The notes beneath the pieces were generated by a model. That model ran no database searches, was not told where the DNA came from, and saw only the letters and a program-made list of their open reading frames with translations. 24,000 bases of DNA from Aetokthonos hydrillicola CCALA 1050 (GTDB lineage: Bacteria > Cyanobacteriota > Cyanobacteriia > Cyanobacteriales > Nostocaceae). The stretch is taken from the NCBI RefSeq assembly GCF_017591665.1, contig NZ_JAAKGC010000002.1, positions 126,487-150,486 of the forward strand, in the 5' to 3' direction. Numbering within the stretch: the first letter of the stretch is position 1; each line of letters begins with the position of its first letter. The translations under genes and the position numbers were made by a program. Of the stretch, positions 3,039 through 13,443 are shown piece by piece.

Positions 3039-4061
3039 TTGTTGTTAAGCTTTATGACAGAACAGCCAAAACTCGCTGTTGAGGTGCTAGATAGTTTCGG
3101 TCATTTACTAGAAAACCAAAAAAGAAGCACTCCACAGACTAGAAAATTAACTCGCCGACAGTTTATCAAAGGGGTTGGTTTTGCTAGTGCAGGATTGCTA
3201 GGAGTAATAACGCTGCAGCGAGTGTTTCAGGAGAATCTGCAGCAGTTTGAATTTCAGGTAGTGAAGGTGGATGCAACAGGAAAAATTATCAAGAGCAACA
3301 CTAGTAGCGCAAATTTCTTTACTGAAGATTTGGGCAATGGTGTCACTTTGGATATGGTGGAAATTCCTGGGGGTAAGTTTGTTATGGGTTCCCCGTCAAC
3401 AGAAAAGGATAGATCTGATTCTGAACGTCCACAGCACAATGTTACAATTAAACCTTTTTATATAGGCAAGTTTACCATTACCCAACAGCAATATCAGGCA
3501 GTTATGGGGAAAAATCCCTCCAACTTCAAAGGAGAAAAACGACCTGTTGAACAAGTAAGCTGGGATGATGCGATCGCGTTCTGTGATAAACTATCTCAAA
3601 GGACAGGTAAAACCTATCGGCTACCAAGTGAAGCTGAGTGGGAATATGCTTGTCGTGCTCTTACAACTACCCCGTTTTATTTTGGTGAGACAATTACTAC
3701 GGATTTAGCGAATTATTACGGTAGCTCAACTTATGCATCTGAACCAAAAGGCGTTTACCGTCAGCAAACAACCGAAGTAGGAAAATTTCCACCAAACGCT
3801 TGGGGTTTATATGATATGCATGGTAATATATGGGAGTGGTGTCAAGATACCTGGCATGATAGCTATGAAGGTGCGCCGGTTGACGGCACTGCATGGGTGA
3901 GCGATGATAAAAATAATACACTACATCTGCTGCGGGGTGGTGCTTGGAACAACGTTCCGAGAATATGCCGAACAATAGATCGCGATTGGTTCGCGCGCGA
4001 CTACTCGGACAGCAATGTAGGTTTTCGCGTGGTTGCGGTTAGTGCAGCCAGGACTGTTTAG
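3039..4061 (+). CDS. Standalone FGE-sulfatase-domain protein with Tat-like signal/anchor; paralog of the C-terminal module of the 956-aa protein
   Basis: 340-aa ORF. RLPSEAEWEYACR, GLYDMHGNIWEWCQD and LLRGGAW...GFRVV are typical of PF03781/CLec-fold domains. TRRQFIKGVGFASAGLLGV fits the twin-arginine consensus (S/T-R-R-x-F-L-K plus a hydrophobic stretch). The start is either TTG 3039 or ATG 3054, and an in-frame TGA lies at 2970-2972. Confidence 0.8.
   Translation: MLLSFMTEQPKLAVEVLDSFGHLLENQKRSTPQTRKLTRRQFIKGVGFASAGLLGVITLQRVFQENLQQFEFQVVKVDATGKIIKSNTSSANFFTEDLGNGVTLDMVEIPGGKFVMGSPSTEKDRSDSERPQHNVTIKPFYIGKFTITQQQYQAVMGKNPSNFKGEKRPVEQVSWDDAIAFCDKLSQRTGKTYRLPSEAEWEYACRALTTTPFYFGETITTDLANYYGSSTYASEPKGVYRQQTTEVGKFPPNAWGLYDMHGNIWEWCQDTWHDSYEGAPVDGTAWVSDDKNNTLHLLRGGAWNNVPRICRTIDRDWFARDYSDSNVGFRVVAVSAARTV
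3927..4061 (+). other. VR-like hypervariable 3' end of the standalone paralog
   Basis: It corresponds to 10670-10804. In the 24 codons between W and GFR, 14 differ from the other copy, mostly in codon positions 1-2. This copy keeps more AAC/AAT codons (aac aac ... aat). Confidence 0.6.
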
Positions 4062-5820: not shown

Positions 5821-6960
5821 ATGAGTAACAATTTACCCCCTGAAGATAATTTACCACTCATTAAAGACTCAAATATTGAATTCCAGGCAAAAAATTCCAC
5901 AATTGATGGTGGAGTAAAAGTTATTCAGGGGAACGACAATATCCAGATTCACCAGGTTGTTGTTGGAAAGGTCACCTTTGAAAGTAGTATTCGGAAGCAT
6001 GTAAAACGACCTCGTTCTGAACAGGAACCTCCCTCTCTGCTGCCATATTTAGTAAATAGAAAAGAACAGGAAGAGGAGTTAGAAAACGCAGTTAAACTGT
6101 TGTTGAAACAAGTCCATCCTCGCCCTCTAGTTTGCATTATTCATGGTAGCGAATTTCAAGGTCATTATCAATTTTTAAAGCGGTTGCAAAAATCCTTTCT
6201 GCCAAGATTTTTAAAATTAGATCCAACCCAGAAGGTACAGGAATACTGTCTCGAGTGGCCGACTGGATTAAAAAATTTAGATCTACTGAAGGATCGGTTA
6301 TGCAAAAATCTAGTAACCAAAGTTCTAGGTCATGATTTTGATTGTCCGGAAGAAATTAATGCTACTTTAAAAGAAATAAATGCAAGCTTCTGCAAATACC
6401 CTAGTCCAATTGTCATTGATACTCATATACGTACTCAAGACTGGCAGCAGCAAGGATTTGAAATATTAAATAAACTGTTGGAGTTTTGGGACAATTGGCC
6501 TGATCTTATTCCAGGACAGAGACTCATAGTCTGTGTATTTATTAAATACACTATCTATCTGCACAAACATACTGAAGAATTTTCGTTTCCACGGATTTTC
6601 AATTGCTTGCCCAGTTTGTACAAGCGGCATTACTATCAAAGTATAAATAAAAAGATTTCAAAAGTACTTAATAAATCAAAAAATAAACATTTTAATCGCT
6701 TATCGTATACTATCTTGTCAGAATTGAAAAATATTAACATAATGCATGTTGAACACTGGGTACGCGATAAAGAAACGAAACAGTTTGTTGGTGAGGAGAA
6801 GACTCAGAAACTGATTAATGACGTAACACTTATGTTTAATCATTGGGGAAAGGACACAATTCCTATGGATGATTTAGCTGATGAGTTAACTCGCCTACTA
6901 AAGTCACTAAAAGTTACTAATTATACTCATGATAAGAAAAAGCCTAATAGGAGCAAATAG
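5821..6960 (+). CDS. Hypothetical protein; possible inactive STAND-like / vWA-MoxR-associated adaptor
   Basis: 379-aa ORF. LPYLVNRKEQEEELENAV...RPLVCIIHGSEFQGHYQFLKRL sits where a STAND NTPase would have its Walker A, but no GxxxxGK[ST] is present. It ends 2 nt before the AAA+ gene, with an AGGAG 10 nt upstream of that start. The family assignment is inference only. Confidence 0.35.
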   Translation: MSNNLPPEDNLPLIKDSNIEFQAKNSTIDGGVKVIQGNDNIQIHQVVVGKVTFESSIRKHVKRPRSEQEPPSLLPYLVNRKEQEEELENAVKLLLKQVHPRPLVCIIHGSEFQGHYQFLKRLQKSFLPRFLKLDPTQKVQEYCLEWPTGLKNLDLLKDRLCKNLVTKVLGHDFDCPEEINATLKEINASFCKYPSPIVIDTHIRTQDWQQQGFEILNKLLEFWDNWPDLIPGQRLIVCVFIKYTIYLHKHTEEFSFPRIFNCLPSLYKRHYYQSINKKISKVLNKSKNKHFNRLSYTILSELKNINIMHVEHWVRDKETKQFVGEEKTQKLINDVTLMFNHWGKDTIPMDDLADELTRLLKSLKVTNYTHDKKKPNRSK

Positions 6961-6962
6961 AT

Positions 6963-7949
6963 ATGAAATTTCCATTCTACAGAGGTGATGGAACTCGACA
7001 GCAGTATGAATCGCCAGCAAAACTACCTATCTCTAGGCGTTCTCTACTACTGAAGCCAGAATATTACATTGCTGATCTAGGACTTAAAGATGCTTGTAAT
7101 GTAGCCCTCTTATTGGGACAACCCCTTCTGCTTACGGGAGAACCCGGAACTGGAAAGACTCAATTTGCCTACAGTCTTGCATGGGAACTTGGTTTCGATC
7201 CACCATTAAAGTTTGAAACTAAGTCTACTAGTACCGCTCGGGATCTTTTCTATACCTATGATGCATTGAAACGTTTCCAAGATGCCCAAAGCGGTGTTTT
7301 ATCAAGCCCCTTGGATTATATCACCTACCAAGCTCTGGGGCTGGCGATTTTACTAACCCGAGATCCGGCTGAGGTTGAGCAAATCTTACCATCAAATTTC
7401 GCACATCCTGGCAAAGTACGCTCTGTTATTTTAATTGATGAAATTGATAAAGCTCCTCGTGACTTCCCAAATGATCTGCTCAATGAACTGGAACACATGT
7501 ATTTTCGTATTCCAGAGTTAGGAAATAAAATAATTGAAACTGATCCAGCACTCCAACCCATTGTAATTATTACCAGCAATACTGAAAAGGATTTGCCAGA
7601 TGCCTTTCTACGGCGTTGCATTTATTATGATATTCCCTTCCCAGAGCATGAGAGACTTGCAGAAATTATTGCCAACCGCCTTGGACTTTATAATGGTAGC
7701 AGCAATCCATTTTTACAAGATGCTCTTGACTTATTTTATCAATTACGTTCCCCTCAAAGTGGTTTAAGGAAAAAACCTGCAACAGCTGAACTATTAGGTT
7801 GGCTCTTGGCTCTAAAAACCGTTGCTGGTGATACACCTAATCCCTTAGATAAATTAGATCTGGTTCAAGCTACCCTCAGTAGCTTAGTCAAAACTTCCGA
7901 AGATCAAGAAAAAGCTAGACAACTTGTAAAGCAATGGATGCTGCAATAG
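6963..7949 (+). CDS. MoxR-like AAA+ ATPase (AAA_5-type)
   Basis: 328-aa ORF with Walker A LLLTGEPGTGKT, Walker B VILIDEIDKA and sensor region IVIITSNTEKDLPDAFLRRC. It overlaps the downstream gene by 16 nt. Confidence 0.8.
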   Translation: MKFPFYRGDGTRQQYESPAKLPISRRSLLLKPEYYIADLGLKDACNVALLLGQPLLLTGEPGTGKTQFAYSLAWELGFDPPLKFETKSTSTARDLFYTYDALKRFQDAQSGVLSSPLDYITYQALGLAILLTRDPAEVEQILPSNFAHPGKVRSVILIDEIDKAPRDFPNDLLNELEHMYFRIPELGNKIIETDPALQPIVIITSNTEKDLPDAFLRRCIYYDIPFPEHERLAEIIANRLGLYNGSSNPFLQDALDLFYQLRSPQSGLRKKPATAELLGWLLALKTVAGDTPNPLDKLDLVQATLSSLVKTSEDQEKARQLVKQWMLQ

Positions 7950-10804
7950 AAATAAATATCCCTGACTGGTTAAATCGCAATGTTCTAACCGATTTTATTG
8001 ATGAACTCAGAGATGCAGGCTATAACATTGGCATTGCTCAGTATATTGCAGCTTATGATTTAATCTTAGCACTAACGGCTCAGGGTGAACCCTTGAATAA
8101 ACCAGAGCGTCTCAAAACTCTGCTTGGACCAATCTTTTGTAGTTCACCAGCTGAGCAGGAAGATTTTCAGCAACGCTTTGACCGTTGGGTTGAGTTGGTT
8201 TGTCAAACTGGTCGCGCAACGGAGGGAGCAGATGTAAAAGCTCAAGCATTATCAGAAGAATTAGGAAAGATCGAAAGGCGTTTGCCTCAGTTAAATAGAA
8301 GACTTATTCTAATTGCTCTAACAGGAATCATTCTACCCTTGTTCTTGGAACAGTCTATAAAAGATGAGAGTACTAGGCCAAAACAACCTTCTGCGAAACA
8401 ACCTTCCGCAAAACAACCTTCTACAACACAACCTTCTACAACACAACCTTCTACAACACAACCTTCTACAACACAACCTTCTACAACATTTGTAACGCCA
8501 CGCAATCGAGACTTTCCACAGGATTGGCAGATATATTTGTTCTCTTTTTTGCTTACTTCTGGTATTATTTTTATAGTGTGGCGTTTATGGTGGTTATGGC
8601 GTGCTCGCCTGTTCTTACAGCGTCATGGAACTACGAAACAGCCTGAGCTATATAAGATTGCTTTCCGTGAATTTGAGCAAAACTTATTCCCTACAATTAT
8701 ATTGATACATGCTGCTCAGAGTTTAAGGTATCGAATCCGTATCCCATCCGATGAACTTGATATTGATAAAACCATTGATGCAACTTTTCGCCAAGGAGGA
8801 TGGCTGACACCAGTATACGGTATTCGTCAAGTTCTTCCCGAGTATCTGTTTCTTATTGATCGTGCTAGCTACTCTGATCATCAGGCTAAATTTATAGAAG
8901 AGATGGTTGAGCGCCTTAAACACAATGGAGTTTTTATCACAAGCTATTTCTTTGATGATGATCCGCGAATTTGCTTTCCTAGTGATGGTATAAGCTCTCC
9001 ACAGAAACTTAACGAAATAGCAGCAAAATTTGCTCAACATCGCCTTGTTATCGTCTCAGATATAGAGAAGCTATTTAGTTCTCAAACTGGTGAGCTAGAA
9101 TCTTGGGTGAGTCAAATGACAAGCTGGGAGCATAGAGCTATTTTAACCCCAAAACCTTTCGAAAGTTGGGGATATCAAGAGTTAGAACTCGCACGCCAGT
9201 TTATTGTTTTACCCGCAACTCCTCAAGGGGTGCGATCGCTTAGCCAAGTTTTACATCACGGATCTGCAACCTACGTTCTCTCTGAAAAAGACCAAAATCC
9301 TCTACCGGAAACGTTGCGTACTCAACCCCATTACTGGATTGAGCGCAACCCGCCAAAACCTGAGCAGATCAATACAATGTTAAACTCATTGCAGGAATAT
9401 CTCGGCGAAGACGGTTTTTACTGGCTCAGCGCTTGTGCTGTTTTTCCGGAGTTACATTGGAACATTACAATCTATCTGGGTAATGCTCTCAAAACAGAGG
9501 ACAGTCAAAGTCTTTTGGAGGTTTGTTCACTAACTAATCTGGCTCGCTTACCCTGGTTTCGTTATGGTTACATACCAGATTGGTTGCGTTCTCGTCTCAT
9601 TGCAACCCTTACATACGAACAGAAGCATACAATCCGCACTGCACTTCAAGATTTACTCATCACTGCTGTTCAGGGATCTGTAGGTAGACAGCAATTAGAA
9701 GTTGCACAAAAGCATCACAGTTTTCTACCTAAACTTGCTAATTCGATACTTTCCCTGTTATCTAGAAGAGCGACTGAAGGTAGTCCATTACGAGACTACT
9801 TGTTTTTAAGCTTTATGACGGGACAGCCAAAACTCGCTGTTGAGGTGCTAGATACTTTCAGTCATTTACTACAAAAGCCACAAAGAATCACTCGGCGACA
9901 GTTTATCAAATGGGCTGGTTTTGTTAGTGCAGGATTCGTAGGAGCAATAGCGCTGCAGCAACTGTTTCAGGAGAATCTGCAGCAGTTTGAATTTCCGGTA
10001 GTGAAGGTGGATGCAACAGGAAAAATTACCAACCGCACGAATAAACAAGCAAATTTCTTTACTGAAGATTTGGGTAATGGTGTGACTTTAGATATGGTAG
10101 AAATTCCTGGGGGTAAGTTTGTTATGGGTTCCCCGTCAACAGAAAAGGATAGATCTGATTCTGAAGGTCCACAGCACAATGTGACGATTAAACGTTTTTT
10201 CATGGGCAAGTTTACCATTACCCAGCAGCAATATCAGGCAGTTATGGGGAAAAATCCCTCGAACTTCAAAGGAGAAAAACGACCTGTTGAAGGAGTAAGT
10301 TGGGATGATGCGATCGCTTTCTGTGCTAAACTATCTCAAAGGACAGGTAAAACCTATCGGCTACCAAGTGAAGCTGAGTGGGAATATGCTTGTCGTGGTT
10401 GGACTACTACGCCGTTTTATTTTGGTGAGACGATTACAACGGATTTAGCAAATTATAACGGTGACTATACTTATGCATCTGAACCAAAAGGCGTTTACCG
10501 TCAGCAAACAACCGAAGTAGGAAAATTTCCACCAAACGCTTGCGGTTTATATGATATGCATGGTAATATATGGGAGTGGTGTCAAGATACCTGGCATGAT
10601 AACTACCAAGGTGCGCCAGATGACGGCACTGCATGGGTGAGCGATAATAATGTTAATAATTCTCGACGTCTGCTGCGTGGCGGTTCGTGGGTCAACGATC
10701 CGAGGTTCTGTCGTTCGGCGTTTCGCGTCAGGCTCGCGCGCGCCTTCTCGAACGACCTTGTGGGTTTTCGCGTGGTCGTGGTTGGTGCAGCCAGGACTCA
10801 TTAG
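7934..10804 (+). CDS. Membrane protein: CoxE-like N-domain, TM hairpin with PST repeat, vWA-like domain (degenerate MIDAS), Tat-like anchor, FGE-sulfatase/CLec domain carrying a DGR variable region
   Basis: 956-aa ORF. The N-terminus FIDELRDAGYNIG...EDFQQRFDRWV and the middle ELDIDKTIDATFRQGG...EYLFLIDRASYSD...VFITSYFFDDD are collinear with CoxE-type vWA proteins (PF05762) as I remember them. Hydrophobic segments are LILIALTGIILPLFL, IYLFSFLLTSGIIFIVWRLWWLW and WAGFVSAGFVGAIAL (the last preceded by TRRQFIK). The C-terminus has RLPSEAEWEYACR, GLYDMHGNIWEWCQD and LLRGGSW...GFRVV. Confidence 0.75.
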   Translation: MDAAIEINIPDWLNRNVLTDFIDELRDAGYNIGIAQYIAAYDLILALTAQGEPLNKPERLKTLLGPIFCSSPAEQEDFQQRFDRWVELVCQTGRATEGADVKAQALSEELGKIERRLPQLNRRLILIALTGIILPLFLEQSIKDESTRPKQPSAKQPSAKQPSTTQPSTTQPSTTQPSTTQPSTTFVTPRNRDFPQDWQIYLFSFLLTSGIIFIVWRLWWLWRARLFLQRHGTTKQPELYKIAFREFEQNLFPTIILIHAAQSLRYRIRIPSDELDIDKTIDATFRQGGWLTPVYGIRQVLPEYLFLIDRASYSDHQAKFIEEMVERLKHNGVFITSYFFDDDPRICFPSDGISSPQKLNEIAAKFAQHRLVIVSDIEKLFSSQTGELESWVSQMTSWEHRAILTPKPFESWGYQELELARQFIVLPATPQGVRSLSQVLHHGSATYVLSEKDQNPLPETLRTQPHYWIERNPPKPEQINTMLNSLQEYLGEDGFYWLSACAVFPELHWNITIYLGNALKTEDSQSLLEVCSLTNLARLPWFRYGYIPDWLRSRLIATLTYEQKHTIRTALQDLLITAVQGSVGRQQLEVAQKHHSFLPKLANSILSLLSRRATEGSPLRDYLFLSFMTGQPKLAVEVLDTFSHLLQKPQRITRRQFIKWAGFVSAGFVGAIALQQLFQENLQQFEFPVVKVDATGKITNRTNKQANFFTEDLGNGVTLDMVEIPGGKFVMGSPSTEKDRSDSEGPQHNVTIKRFFMGKFTITQQQYQAVMGKNPSNFKGEKRPVEGVSWDDAIAFCAKLSQRTGKTYRLPSEAEWEYACRGWTTTPFYFGETITTDLANYNGDYTYASEPKGVYRQQTTEVGKFPPNACGLYDMHGNIWEWCQDTWHDNYQGAPDDGTAWVSDNNVNNSRRLLRGGSWVNDPRFCRSAFRVRLARAFSNDLVGFRVVVVGAARTH
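8381..8485 (+). repeat. In-frame 15-nt tandem repeat, 7 units, encoding (KQPSA)2-KQPST-(TQPST)4
   Basis: Units aaacaaccttctgcg / aaacaaccttccgca / aaacaaccttctaca / acacaaccttctaca x4, read directly. It lies between the first two hydrophobic segments of the 956-aa protein. Confidence 0.95.
10670..10804 (+). other. DGR variable region (VR) at the 3' end of the 956-aa gene
   Basis: Its 5' 18 nt (ctgctgcgtggcggttcg) are repeated exactly at 12427-12444 just after the RT gene. The segment is the only strongly divergent part between two otherwise ~85-90% identical paralogs. It occupies the canonical LLRGGSW...GFRV position of CLec-fold DGR targets, and avd and RT are immediately downstream. Confidence 0.7.
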
Positions 10805-10855
10805 CCCTTTACTCTCTTGCACTTTTGCACTCTACCCTCTATTATTTACCTTTAC

Positions 10856-10882
10856 TCCGCCGCAGGCGGATCGATTTTTTTT
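10856..10882 (+). terminator. Hairpin plus T-run downstream of VR (intrinsic terminator; possibly also the DGR target-site hairpin)
   Basis: tccgcc-gca-ggcgga (6-bp GC-rich stem, 3-nt loop) at 10856-10870, followed by tcga and tttttttt (10875-10882). Confidence 0.6.
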
Positions 10883-10894
10883 GAGTTTTTTAAG

Positions 10895-11091
10895 ATGAGC
10901 GATTTGCCTATTATACAGAAAACCTACGATTTGATCAAGTGGTATGTCCCAATTTTAAACCGCGTGCCGAGAGAACATAAATTTTTATTGGCAAACCGGA
11001 TGATTACAGGACTGTACGATATTCGGGATGCTCTGATCGTAGCACGGTATTCCACCAAAGACAAGTTAGCTCAGTTAGAATCTTTGAAGAA
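10895..11091 (+). pseudogene. avd: DGR accessory variability determinant (Avd), 3'-truncated
   Basis: MSDLPIIQKTYDLIKWYVPILNRVPREHKFLLANRMITGLYDIRDALIVARYSTKDKLAQLESL matches the N-terminal half of cyanobacterial Avd proteins as I recall them. From 11092 the frame runs into a GAATTCAGGAGTCA-repeat hairpin element and ends at 11173. No second half of avd follows before the RT start. ATG 10895 is preferred over the listed 10817 start, which lies upstream of the terminator. Confidence 0.6.
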
Positions 11092-11310
11092 GAATTCAGG
11101 AGTCAGAATTCAGGAGTCAGAACAAGAGCGTAAGGGATTCGATTCAAACCTGCCACTAATTGCAGACCGCTAAATCTTCTCCTATCGGAGACGCTACGCG
11201 TAGCTTGCTTCCCCAAAGGGGTACGATTTAGCCGGGGTCTTAAGCCCCTTAACTCATCTGCCAGTCGTACAGAATTCATGCGCTCATTCTGACTCCTGAT
11301 TCCTGAGTTC
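11092..11310. mobile_element. ORF-less hairpin element with inverted heptamer-repeat arms, replacing the 3' half of avd
   Basis: The left arm is (gaattcaggagtca)x2 at 11092-11119. The right arm ttctgactcctgattcctgagttc at 11287-11310 is its imperfect reverse complement. The interior contains further palindromes (gctaaatc...gatttagc). Confidence 0.55.
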
Positions 11311-11329
11311 TATTTAATAAGACAACAGC

Positions 11330-12391
11330 ATGAAACGACATGGTAATCTGTGGAAGGACGTTATCGCGTTTGAGAATTTACTAACAGCTAGCCGGAAAGC
11401 ACAACGGGGCAAACGTTTTCGAGACAATGTTCTGTCGTTCAATTACAATCTAGAGAAAGAGCTATTTCAACTACAAGCAGAATTACAGTCAAAAACATAC
11501 AATCCCGGTTTATATACAACATTTCGGATTTTTGAACCAAAGCCACGTCTGATTTCTGCTGCTCCTTATCGCGATAGAGTAGTACATCACGCTCTTTGCA
11601 ACATTATTGCTCCTATTTTTGAAAGAACATTCATTCATGATTCCTACGCTAACCGCGTTGGTTTTGGCAGTCACCGCGCGTTACGTCGTTTTACAAGCTT
11701 TGCGCGCTCAAGTCGCTACATTCTGCAATGCGATATTCGCAAATATTTTCCCAGCATCGACCATGAAATTTTAAGGTCACTGGTACGCCGTAAAATCAAA
11801 TGCCGTGATACACTCTGGCTAATCGACAATATTATTGATGCAAGTAACCCTCAAGAACCAGTTATCGATTACTTCCCTGGTGATGATTTACTTATGCCTT
11901 TGGAACGACGAAGAGGCTTGCCAATTGGTAATTTAACCAGCCAATTCTTTGCGAATGTATACCTTAACAGTTTAGATCATTTTGTTAAAGAACAAATCAA
12001 AGCGACCAAATATGTTCGCTACGTTGATGATTTTGCTTTGTTTTCAGATGACCGAGAATTTTTAGAAAACGCAAGACGAGAAATCGAAGAACACCTTGCT
12101 AGTCTGAGGCTCAAGCTTCATCCTGTTAAGAGCCAATTATTTCAGACAAAACACGGTGCCAATTTTGTTGGTTTTCGCATCTTACCAAATCGGATTCGAG
12201 TAAGGAACGATAATCTGCGTCTCGCAAGGCGAAGATTACGAAAGATGGTTTTAGACTATAGAGAGGGCAAAATTACCCAACAGGAAGTATCTCAGTCAAT
12301 TCGGAGTTGGATTGGTCACTTAAAACATGGAGATACTTGGCGATTGCGCCAGGAAATATTTAGTTCTCTCGTGTTTTCAAAAAAACCCTAA
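11330..12391 (+). CDS. DGR-type reverse transcriptase
   Basis: 353-aa intact ORF beginning MKRHGNLW. It has the RT motifs [26 protein letters not shown] (the [I/L]GxxxSQ motif typical of DGR RTs) and the catalytic [11 protein letters not shown]. Confidence 0.85.
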
Positions 12392-12426
12392 TATGTTATC
12401 CTCAACTGTGGGGTAGGCAATACCGA

Positions 12427-12444
12427 CTGCTGCGTGGCGGTTCG
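12427..12444 (+). other. 5' stub of the DGR template repeat (TR)
   Basis: An 18-nt exact match to the start of VR (10670-10687), located 36 nt after the RT stop. The match stops at the edge of the inserted cassette (12445). A tgg that would continue the match follows the cassette at 12881-12883. Confidence 0.55.
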
Positions 12445-12880
12445 AATTCAGTTATCAGTTATCAGTTATCAGTTATCAGTCGATTATGAATAGTTTAGTT
12501 TATGAGAAAGCGTATAAATTTGCCATTCGCATTGTAAACGCATACAAATATCTTTCTGAAGAGAAGAAAGAATATATTTTATCAAAGCAATTAATTAGAA
12601 GCGGAACCTCAATTGGAGCTAATATCGCTGAAGCTAATGGAGCAATATCTCAAGCAGATTTTTGCTGCAAAATTTCTATTGCTTATAAAGAATGCTTGGA
12701 AACGAAATATTGGCTTTCTTTGTTAAAAGATACAGCATACATTGAGCAGAAAGCATTTGATAGCATTTATGAAGATGCAGATGAAATAGGAAAAATTCTA
12801 TTTTCAATCCTTAAAAAAACAAAAATTAAACAACAATCAATAGAATGATAACTGATAACTGATAACTGATAACTGATAAG
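12445..12880. mobile_element. IVS-like cassette: four-helix-bundle gene flanked by inverted heptamer arrays, inserted in the TR
   Basis: (cagttat)x4 at 12449-12476 and (gataact)x4 at 12847-12874 are reverse complements of each other. The interior is visibly more AT-rich than the flanks. Like the element in avd, it starts with gaattcag. Confidence 0.65.
12486..12848 (+). CDS. Four helix bundle protein (23S rRNA intervening-sequence protein / Avd superfamily)
   Basis: 120-aa ORF. LIRSGTSIGANIAEANGAISQADFCCKISIAYKECLETKYWLSLL is the hallmark of the TIGR02436/PF05635 family. Confidence 0.8.
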   Translation: MNSLVYEKAYKFAIRIVNAYKYLSEEKKEYILSKQLIRSGTSIGANIAEANGAISQADFCCKISIAYKECLETKYWLSLLKDTAYIEQKAFDSIYEDADEIGKILFSILKKTKIKQQSIE

Positions 12881-12976
12881 TGGGGTTGGAAACAATCTTC
12901 GAAAATAAAACTGAGTCGGATAGCTTAGTAGGCTGCAAAGTCGAACGGTTTGTCTGACTTATTGAAGTTTATAGGT

Positions 12977-13124
12977 CAATATGGTTCAGTTAAAGCCTAA
13001 AGTTGTGTAGTTGTGTAGTTGTGTAGGTTGGGCTGAGGGACGAAGACCAACATTTTTAGAATTTCGTTGGGCAACACGAGCGTTCAACCCAACCTACCAC
13101 TAAGCCTTAACTGAACCGTATTGG
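12977..13124. mobile_element. MITE-like nested palindromic element, including an (agttgtgt)x3 octamer repeat
   Basis: Outer inverted repeats caatatggttcagttaaagcctaaag (12977-13002) and ctaagccttaactgaaccgtattg (13100-13123). Inner inverted repeats gtaggttgggctgagg / gttcaacccaacctac. Confidence 0.6.
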
Positions 13125-13218
13125 GTTATAGATCTGCAATCAGTCAACCAAAAAGTTTTTCTCCAAAGAGCAATGCCTGCGGCGGGCTGCGCCTACGCTA
13201 ATTTGTTTGTAGCCTATG

Positions 13219-13443
13219 TTACTGTATTTCCCAATCTTCAATCAGCAAGTTATTAACACGCTTAAATTCTCTAGTATTATGGGTAATGAGAGTTAAATTA
13301 TTTGTCAGCGCGATCGCAGCAATTTGTAAGTCATAAGCTCCGATGGGAGTGCCTAATGCTTCTAGCCCAGATCGAATCGTTCCAAATGTCATACTTACTA
13401 GATCATCAAACGGTAGTGATGTGAATTGGGCTAAAAATTTTTG
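13219..13443 (-). pseudogene. VapC-type PIN toxin, C-terminal fragment only
   Basis: The minus-strand frame reads QKFLAQFTSLPFDDLVSMTFGTIRSGLEALGTPIGAYDLQIAAIALTNNLTLITHNTREFKRVNNLLIEDWEIQ*. It has no N-terminal PIN half and no start, and an in-frame stop lies at 13444-13446. Confidence 0.65.

Follow-up and report, generated by a model that had tools for sequence, protein, structure and literature searches.

A heptamer-armed PF05635 cassette in a decayed DGR of Aetokthonos hydrillicola

In Aetokthonos hydrillicola CCALA 1050, a small gene enclosed by long complementary heptamer arrays lies between the RT gene of a DGR and the remains of the structured RNA that follows the template repeat (TR) in related elements. 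Is such a unit a working part of the retroelement or something that has settled in it? The 24,000-nt stretch of DNA analyzed here is referred to as the window, and positions are counted from its first letter. An earlier note on this DNA had offered three readings of the cassette: a selfish unit lodged in a structured RNA region, a replacement Avd supplied in cis, and a processing signal that fragments the TR RNA. On the evidence below, the cassette looks like a travelling passenger and not a spare part for the DGR.

The cassette and its heptamer arms

The cassette (12445–12880) contains a plus-strand gene (12486–12848) for a 120-aa protein, identified by both profile and homology matches. The gene, like the cassette as a whole, has a GC content of ~30%, compared to ~40% in the surroundings. 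The protein matches PF05635 (E 1.5e-31, 109.2 bits with a cut-off of 33.8, profile positions 3–105 of 106) and TIGR02436 (E 8e-33, 112.9 bits with a cut-off of 24, positions 1–109 of 109). These full-length matches bear out its assignment to the family first seen in 23S rRNA intervening sequences (IVSs). Residues 3–113 match PDB entry 2RLD at E 2.9e-34, and homology to this solved structure suggests a four-helix-bundle fold.

The left arm, (TCAGTTA)4.5 at 12448–12480 on the plus strand, can be read as (CAGTTAT)4.5 in another register. The right arm, (TGATAAC)4.5 at 12846–12879 on the same strand, is equivalent to (ATAACTG)4.5 and, in yet another register, is a tandem array of TAACTGA. The two arms are complementary over 24 nt at 100% and over 32 nt at 97%. 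The ORF fills the space between them exactly: its start codon lies 5 nt past the left arm, and the right arm opens with its stop codon, TGA. The RNA fold prediction that the earlier note had called for yields an uninterrupted, perfect 31-bp stem that closes around the entire ORF, with a dG of −119.9 kcal/mol compared to −81.4 ± 4.5 kcal/mol for shuffled sequences (z −8.6). The description of the architecture as IVS-like stands. On the basis of ~126 arrays of the cassette’s heptamer word in the 9.0-Mb genome, a second, inverted array within 400 nt is expected by chance in roughly 0.3% of cases. No Rfam family, rRNA included, is matched at 10600–13400, PADLOC returns no match, and no promoter-like site is found on the plus strand between the RT gene and the cassette ORF. 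The genome carries two RNase III genes.

The cassette subfamily (at least 73% identity at the DNA level) is present in 47 of 389 genomes of the family and 17 of 68 genera, and the 47 carriers nearly always have one copy each. The survey for further (CAGTTAT)n-flanked relatives suggested in the earlier note has two outcomes: relatives are found across the family, while the cassette is single-copy in its own genome. There, tblastn with the 120-aa protein returns no close paralogue and only a 33% relative, and a multi-copy element in this genome was accordingly rejected.

Complementary heptamer arms flank the gene in 30 of 34 genome loci and in 49 of the 63 metagenome loci with enough flanking sequence; the layout of gene plus inverted arms recurs in 16 further genome copies. 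The left arm word varies (CAGTTAT, CAGTTAC, CAATTAA, CAGTGAA, CAGTAAA, CAGTCAC, GTGACCA, and CATTTAA), and each variant is matched on the right by its reverse complement; therefore, both arms change jointly. These compensatory word variants are better evidence than a comparison of arm complementarity within and between loci (mean 24.9 for self versus 20.3 for cross), which was set aside as the main proof because most loci share the CAGTTAT word, making the test weakly discriminating. Sites of the same subfamily outside DGRs include positions upstream of a prepilin gene and after a histidine-kinase gene, among others.

The genome is rich in such repeats. It holds 1377 heptamer arrays of at least 21 nt, with GGGGCAT, GACTCCT, TAACTGA, AAAAGTC, and AATCCCC as the main words, and 72 perfect (CAGTTAT) arrays of at least three units. 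Array pairs 60–250 nt apart are inverted in 94 cases and direct in 6, and one cluster of 34 array pairs has a common inter-arm sequence. Besides the cassette gene, PF05635 is matched seven times in the genome, and inverted arms, each with a separate word, also flank three of these paralogues (AGGAGTC, GGGGATT, and AGGGAAC). The last word is also found in a ~1.9-kb unit with 90-bp inverted ends containing (AGGGAAC)n, which encloses a PF05635 gene together with a transposase of the ISL3 family (PF01610, E 1e-61); its two copies (C165:8467–10371, locus L001, and C239:21268–23171) are 88.5% identical.

The host DGR and the replaced template

The target gene of the DGR (7934–10804, plus strand) encodes 956 aa with a C-terminal FGE-sulfatase/CLec-type domain (PF03781, E 2.8e-57). 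Its VR spans approximately 10667–10790 on the plus strand, and sequence inspection places a GC hairpin 3′ of the gene at about 10858–10873. Paralogues of the target’s FGE-sulfatase domain are found at 846–1080 and 3267–3896 of the window. Elsewhere in the genome, C158:114279–114568 is 82% identical to the VR region and its downstream hairpin and is possibly a second target of the same DGR.

The avd gene that follows is truncated (10895–11090, plus strand). It matches the Avd profile NF033474 (E 2.3e-18) over positions 1–60 of 104 only and PF22296 over positions 3–58 of 107, in agreement with the earlier observation that avd is broken. The RT gene (11330–12391, plus strand) has an intact ORF of 353 aa (PF00078, E 2.5e-23) with the motifs IGNLTSQ and YVDD. 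Past the RT gene, the TR leader with its tggggtagg motif and the sole surviving stretch of the TR occupy 12402–12444 on the plus strand. The TR part, 21 nt at 12424–12444, matches VR positions 10667–10687 as direct repeat D1 and is identical to them at 20 of 21 positions, the sole mismatch falling at a TR adenine. On the far side of the cassette, 12880–12958 (plus strand) is a remnant of a conserved RNA 3′ of the TR, which retains hairpins H2 and H3, lacks H1, and is 83% identical to the post-TR element of the nearest intact DGR. Further downstream, 13023–13130 is a dispersed repeat with inverted ends (GTAGGTTGGGCTGA...TCAACCCAACCTAC) that is found at ~75–80% identity in many related genomes.

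That nearest intact DGR, in genome G016, has an RT with 77% nucleotide identity over its full length. Its order is RT, TR, ~80 nt, and then the equivalent of window positions 12879–12950 (83% identical). Judged against 16–17 intact related DGR loci, the cassette stands in for TR base 22 to the TR end plus H1, a stretch of ~178 nt in G016. All 21 surviving TR nucleotides are upstream of the cassette, and nothing TR-like is found downstream of it. The alignments show that the cassette has replaced the TR rather than inserted into an intact one. The earlier placement of the cassette inside the TR is thereby corrected. The cassette also no longer sits in RNA that the RT must copy, as the template is gone, and a signal that fragments the TR RNA would have no substrate. 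With an intact RT, a TR cut to 21 nt, and a truncated avd, the DGR of the window is dead, having neither a usable template nor a full Avd. Because the TR has been replaced and half of avd is missing, there is no working DGR for the cassette to serve.

The truncation of avd, at about codon 66, is caused by a second heptamer-armed element, which has no ORF (11091–11311, no strand assigned). Its arms consist of AGAATTC/AGGAGTC and their complement (inverted repeats I3 and I7). Homology to G016 ends at 11088; the counterpart there is 319 nt of avd and avd–RT spacer, and the ORF-less element stands where the 3′ half of avd and this spacer would be. The earlier note had taken it for a relative of the cassette. 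The two have the same architecture, but the heptamer words differ, and the interior of the avd element is a mosaic of dispersed repeats. True ORF-less derivatives of the cassette do exist elsewhere, at a site in genus g13 described below. A 50-nt core of the avd insert (11175–11229) has ~14 copies in the genome and is 92–98% identical in many other genera.

A comparable fate of DGRs is documented in Thiohalocapsa PB-PSB1, where MITE-like repeats have replaced the RT or TR (Dore et al. 2024, PMC10907252). In both cases, hairpin-forming repeats replaced the TR or other key parts, and the loci decayed. However, the Thiohalocapsa repeats come from IS inverted ends and are geneless, whereas the elements in the window have heptamer arms, and one of them has a conserved gene.

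Across the 17 aligned loci of this DGR family, a conserved ~170-nt stretch containing three hairpins (H1–H3) always lies directly 3′ of the TR. The consensus fold from 16 intact loci in other genomes has 42 pairs, 22 of them with compensatory changes; an intact example is L010:1134–1300 on the minus strand. Neither the intact element nor the window region is matched in Rfam. This RNA may be the counterpart of the spacer/priming region of the Bordetella phage DGR. An ACTGATA...TATCAG hairpin after the TR of G016 was considered as the footprint of an excised cassette. This was rejected because the hairpin is the inner stem of H1, which covaries and is present, with varying sequence, in all intact DGRs.

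Loss, exchange, and recurrence beside DGR debris

In genus g13, gain and loss of the cassette can be followed in the intergenic region preceding a prepilin gene (L094–L102), an orthologous site compared across eight genomes. Three have the full cassette, with a damaged ORF in each; two have only the arms; one has the arms and a 27-nt remnant of the ORF end; and two are empty, with no heptamers. Thus, the ORF can be lost while the arms persist. Where the cassette is present, it has replaced the native 35-nt spacer, and in two genomes, the stop codon of the upstream gene comes from the arm. No target-site duplication is found at this site or at the window, with host sequence being replaced. In addition, the G165 cassette is inverted relative to its flanks, and its right junction is shared with G335 and G005. 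The cassette thus has inverted ends like those of MITEs and insertion sequences; however, being single-copy in each genome and having no target-site duplication, it is unlike a typical mobile element.

The protein is conserved by purifying selection, with dN/dS values of 0.10–0.12 relative to its closest relatives. However, approximately 7 of 35 copies are broken, indicating that the gene is dispensable in some hosts. Between genera, the cassettes are much more similar than their hosts. The cassette dS is 0.30 between G000, the genome of the window, and G335 (recA 1.16, adjacent target gene 1.16), 0.32 between G000 and G165 (recA 1.12, target gene 2.1), 0.21 between G335 and G165 (recA 1.05, target gene 2.6), and 0.47 between G317 and G189 (recA 1.04, target gene 0.85). 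The dS between the two cassette clades is 1.7–4.5; thus, synonymous sites are not generally constrained. Since cassette values of 0.21–0.47 stand against recA values of 1.04–1.16 in the same genome pairs, these divergences show that the cassette lineage has been exchanged between genera later than the split of those genera. The high identity of cassettes within genera was rejected as evidence for transfer, as the downstream flanks are equally similar and only the fast-evolving target gene is lower.

The cassette is adjacent to DGR sequences at nine loci in five genera (G000, G335, G005, G338, G165, G319, G317, G323, and G189). In these nine genomes, which make up the two closest clades, it is always at the TR-3′ flank or beside VR, TR, or target debris. 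The DGR-adjacent copies occupy two clades of the cassette tree, and the tree is compatible with one origin or two for them. The junctions are not uniform. In the window, the left junction is at TR base 21, and the right junction is at the first base before H2; the right junction of G335, G005, and G165 falls 43 nt further on, inside H3, and the left junctions of G165, G189, and G338 are within ~10 nt of the H1 5′ strand. Among the DGR-adjacent loci tested, an RT gene adjoins the cassette only in the window. Four further loci of this kind were inspected across 14 kb, and neither an RT nor avd is present within 6 kb of them; the G317, G165, and G319 genomes contain no DGR RT. None of 80 metagenome relatives adjoins an RT (within 4 kb) or the TR-3′ module, and none of the remaining 37 genome copies is near a DGR RT or the TR-3′ module. 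A general targeting of DGRs was rejected because heptamer arrays are absent altogether from 14 of the 17 other DGR loci that were scanned.

The G189 locus (L065, G189:C1:5384000–5398000, at ~5850–6800) is an orphan unit composed of target gene, VR, hairpin, a 130-nt spacer, TR, and cassette. Its VR and TR differ at 16 positions over ~117 nt, all at TR adenines and none elsewhere. No RT or avd is found within 6 kb, and H1–H3 are absent. The two DGR RTs of G189 are megabases away and have different TRs.

In our reading, the DGR location belongs to one or two cassette lineages. Simple legacy does not account for its recurrence in nine genomes of five genera in the face of horizontal exchange; the location would be either maintained by replacement of resident copies or due to a preference for the hairpin region.

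Readings of the cassette and their significance

The cassette is probably a heptamer-armed four-helix-bundle unit with the design of an ORF-bearing 23S rRNA IVS; its host is a decayed DGR and not a helix of rRNA. Of the three readings in the earlier note, the selfish cassette lodged in a structured RNA region is the best fit. In the ORF-bearing IVSs of Coxiella burnetii and Leptospira (PMC4990558), an S23p/PF05635 gene likewise sits in the loop of a terminal stem of ~28–31 bp, part of the stem is made up of heptamers in tandem (in Coxiella, GACAGAT), the ORF begins a few bases past the arm, the unit is lodged in a structured RNA region, and the ORF is often decaying. The C. burnetii IVS has a 28-bp stem of GACAGAT heptamers with mapped RNase III cleavage, and the cut removes the ribosome-binding region (PMC4990558). 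In contrast to the IVSs, the host of the cassette is a DGR TR and its TR-3′ RNA, and the cassette lies between the RT gene and the TR-3′ RNA remnant rather than in a 23S rRNA helix. It has replaced host sequence, whereas an IVS extends its helix, and its protein is under purifying selection. RNase III excision, demonstrated for the IVS, would by analogy apply to the cassette. In this scheme, the cassette would be transcribed by read-through from the RT gene, its arms would pair into a 31-bp RNA duplex that RNase III could cut, and the cut would free the cassette RNA from the host transcript. At the DNA level, the same arms may be sites for exchange, flipping, or deletion of the unit. Because the words are specific to subfamilies, the protein, putatively ring-forming, may act on its own heptamer word. 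The DGR location would then be a lineage-specific legacy, retained through later exchange, with no functional partnership with the RT.

It is very unlikely that the four-helix-bundle protein acts in cis as a stand-in for the truncated Avd and assists the intact RT. PF05635-type proteins and Avd are linked at the superfamily level (PMC10053308), and the claim that the cassette protein belongs to the same superfamily as Avd is plausible in view of this link and of weak direct matches to PF22296 (E 7e-4, 20.5 bits, cut-off 40) and NF033474 (E 0.006, 17 bits, cut-off 80). Like Avd (bAvd), it would be a four-helix bundle of ~110–120 aa in a DGR locus; the RT ORF of the window is intact, and the pristine VR/TR pair of G189 directly adjoins a cassette with no avd nearby. 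However, the scores are far under both cut-offs, so that the curated models do not classify the protein as an Avd. Furthermore, it is heptamer-armed, with the window TR gone there is nothing for the RT to copy, and the closest match of the protein, BT_0352 (2RLD), is a non-DGR protein. The gene has no consistent association with a DGR RT, being present in genomes without one and mostly in non-DGR contexts. Even less credible is the idea that an ordinary small gene came by chance to be flanked by two heptamer microsatellites. The abundance of heptamer arrays in the genome, perfect (CAGTTAT) arrays among them, makes such a coincidence conceivable, but it is already contradicted by the conservation of the arms in genome and metagenome relatives and by the co-variation of their words, and the loop is exactly filled by an ORF whose stop codon lies inside the arm.

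Two further alternatives were weighed. In one, which is unlikely overall, the arms are the functional ends of a DNA element (recombination or cruciform sites), RNA processing is incidental, and the protein binds its own word and promotes the spread or maintenance of the heptamer arrays of the genome. The four armed PF05635 genes each have their own word (TCAGTTA, AGGAGTC, GGGGATT, and AGGGAAC), and three of the four words are among the most abundant heptamer families of the genome (126, 228, and 59 arrays). The excess of inverted over direct array pairs, the inversion and ORF loss that happen at the arms, and the paralogue that travels with an ISL3 transposase inside heptamer-containing inverted ends also favor this alternative. 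However, no gene in the assembly is cognate to the most abundant family, GGGGCAT (>300 arrays), the cassette is single-copy in each genome, the binding of heptamers by the protein is putative, and the same observations are compatible with an RNA-level role. In the other, which we consider improbable, the cassette homes to the H1 hairpin region 3′ of the TR and entered several DGRs independently. This would parallel the IVSs at the tips of rRNA helices and is consistent with the nine DGR-adjacent loci in five genera, with cassettes much younger than their hosts and the neighboring target genes, and with the left junctions of G165, G189, and G338 close to H1. Moreover, G165 and G335 share a right junction despite different H3 variants and a target dS of 2.6, and in the DGRs nearest to that of the window, the H1 stem (AACTGATA...TATCAG) resembles the arm word. 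However, this stem word differs among DGRs, most other DGR loci have no heptamer array, and no metagenome relative or other genome copy is near a DGR RT or TR module. The two clades of DGR-adjacent copies are compatible with a single origin, and recombinational replacement of a resident cassette would produce the same pattern.

The IVS-like passenger also has counterparts among known heptamer repeats. Short tandemly repeated repetitive (STRR) heptamers and small dispersed repeats are reportedly characteristic of heterocystous cyanobacteria, as described by Mazel in 1990 and Elhai in 2008. As in those repeats, the heptamer arrays here are genome-wide, and other small repeats lie between them, the avd insert being an example. 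To our knowledge, no protein family or inverted-arm cassette has been connected with STRR arrays. The TAACTGA direct repeats of Beggiatoaceae and cyanobacteria, of 2–6 units and mostly intergenic, have the identical heptamer unit (TGATAAC/TAACTGA), and their arrays also abut start codons (MacGregor 2015, PMC4679880). In contrast to the cassette, they are direct arrays upstream of genes, with one inverted case and no link to PF05635 (PMC4679880). In the searchable literature, a gene-in-heptamer-stem design is described only for rRNA IVSs, and none was found outside rRNA.

A broader reading is offered tentatively and at low confidence. PF05635 cassettes would be a class of elements that take over structured non-coding RNA hairpins, with 23S rRNA helices as the known case and the DGR TR-3′ priming region as the second; they would be exchanged between genera at their arms, and a pentameric protein would recognize about five tandem copies of its own 7-base word. 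If true, the long-unexplained heptamer repeats of bacteria (STRR and TAACTGA) would gain an identified protein partner.

For decades, explanations have been lacking for the 23S rRNA IVSs, for the “S23p” proteins of PF05635, and for the heptamer repeats found in cyanobacteria and Beggiatoa. The locus presents what is probably the same gene-in-heptamer-stem unit outside rRNA, where it has overwritten the template of a retroelement. It documents the death of a DGR whose parts were replaced by hairpin elements, and it brings to light an RNA structure, conserved and covarying, that lies 3′ of the TR and is absent from Rfam. With co-evolving arms, geneless derivatives, and exchange between genera, the binding of the repeats by the protein and the cutting of the stem become testable questions.
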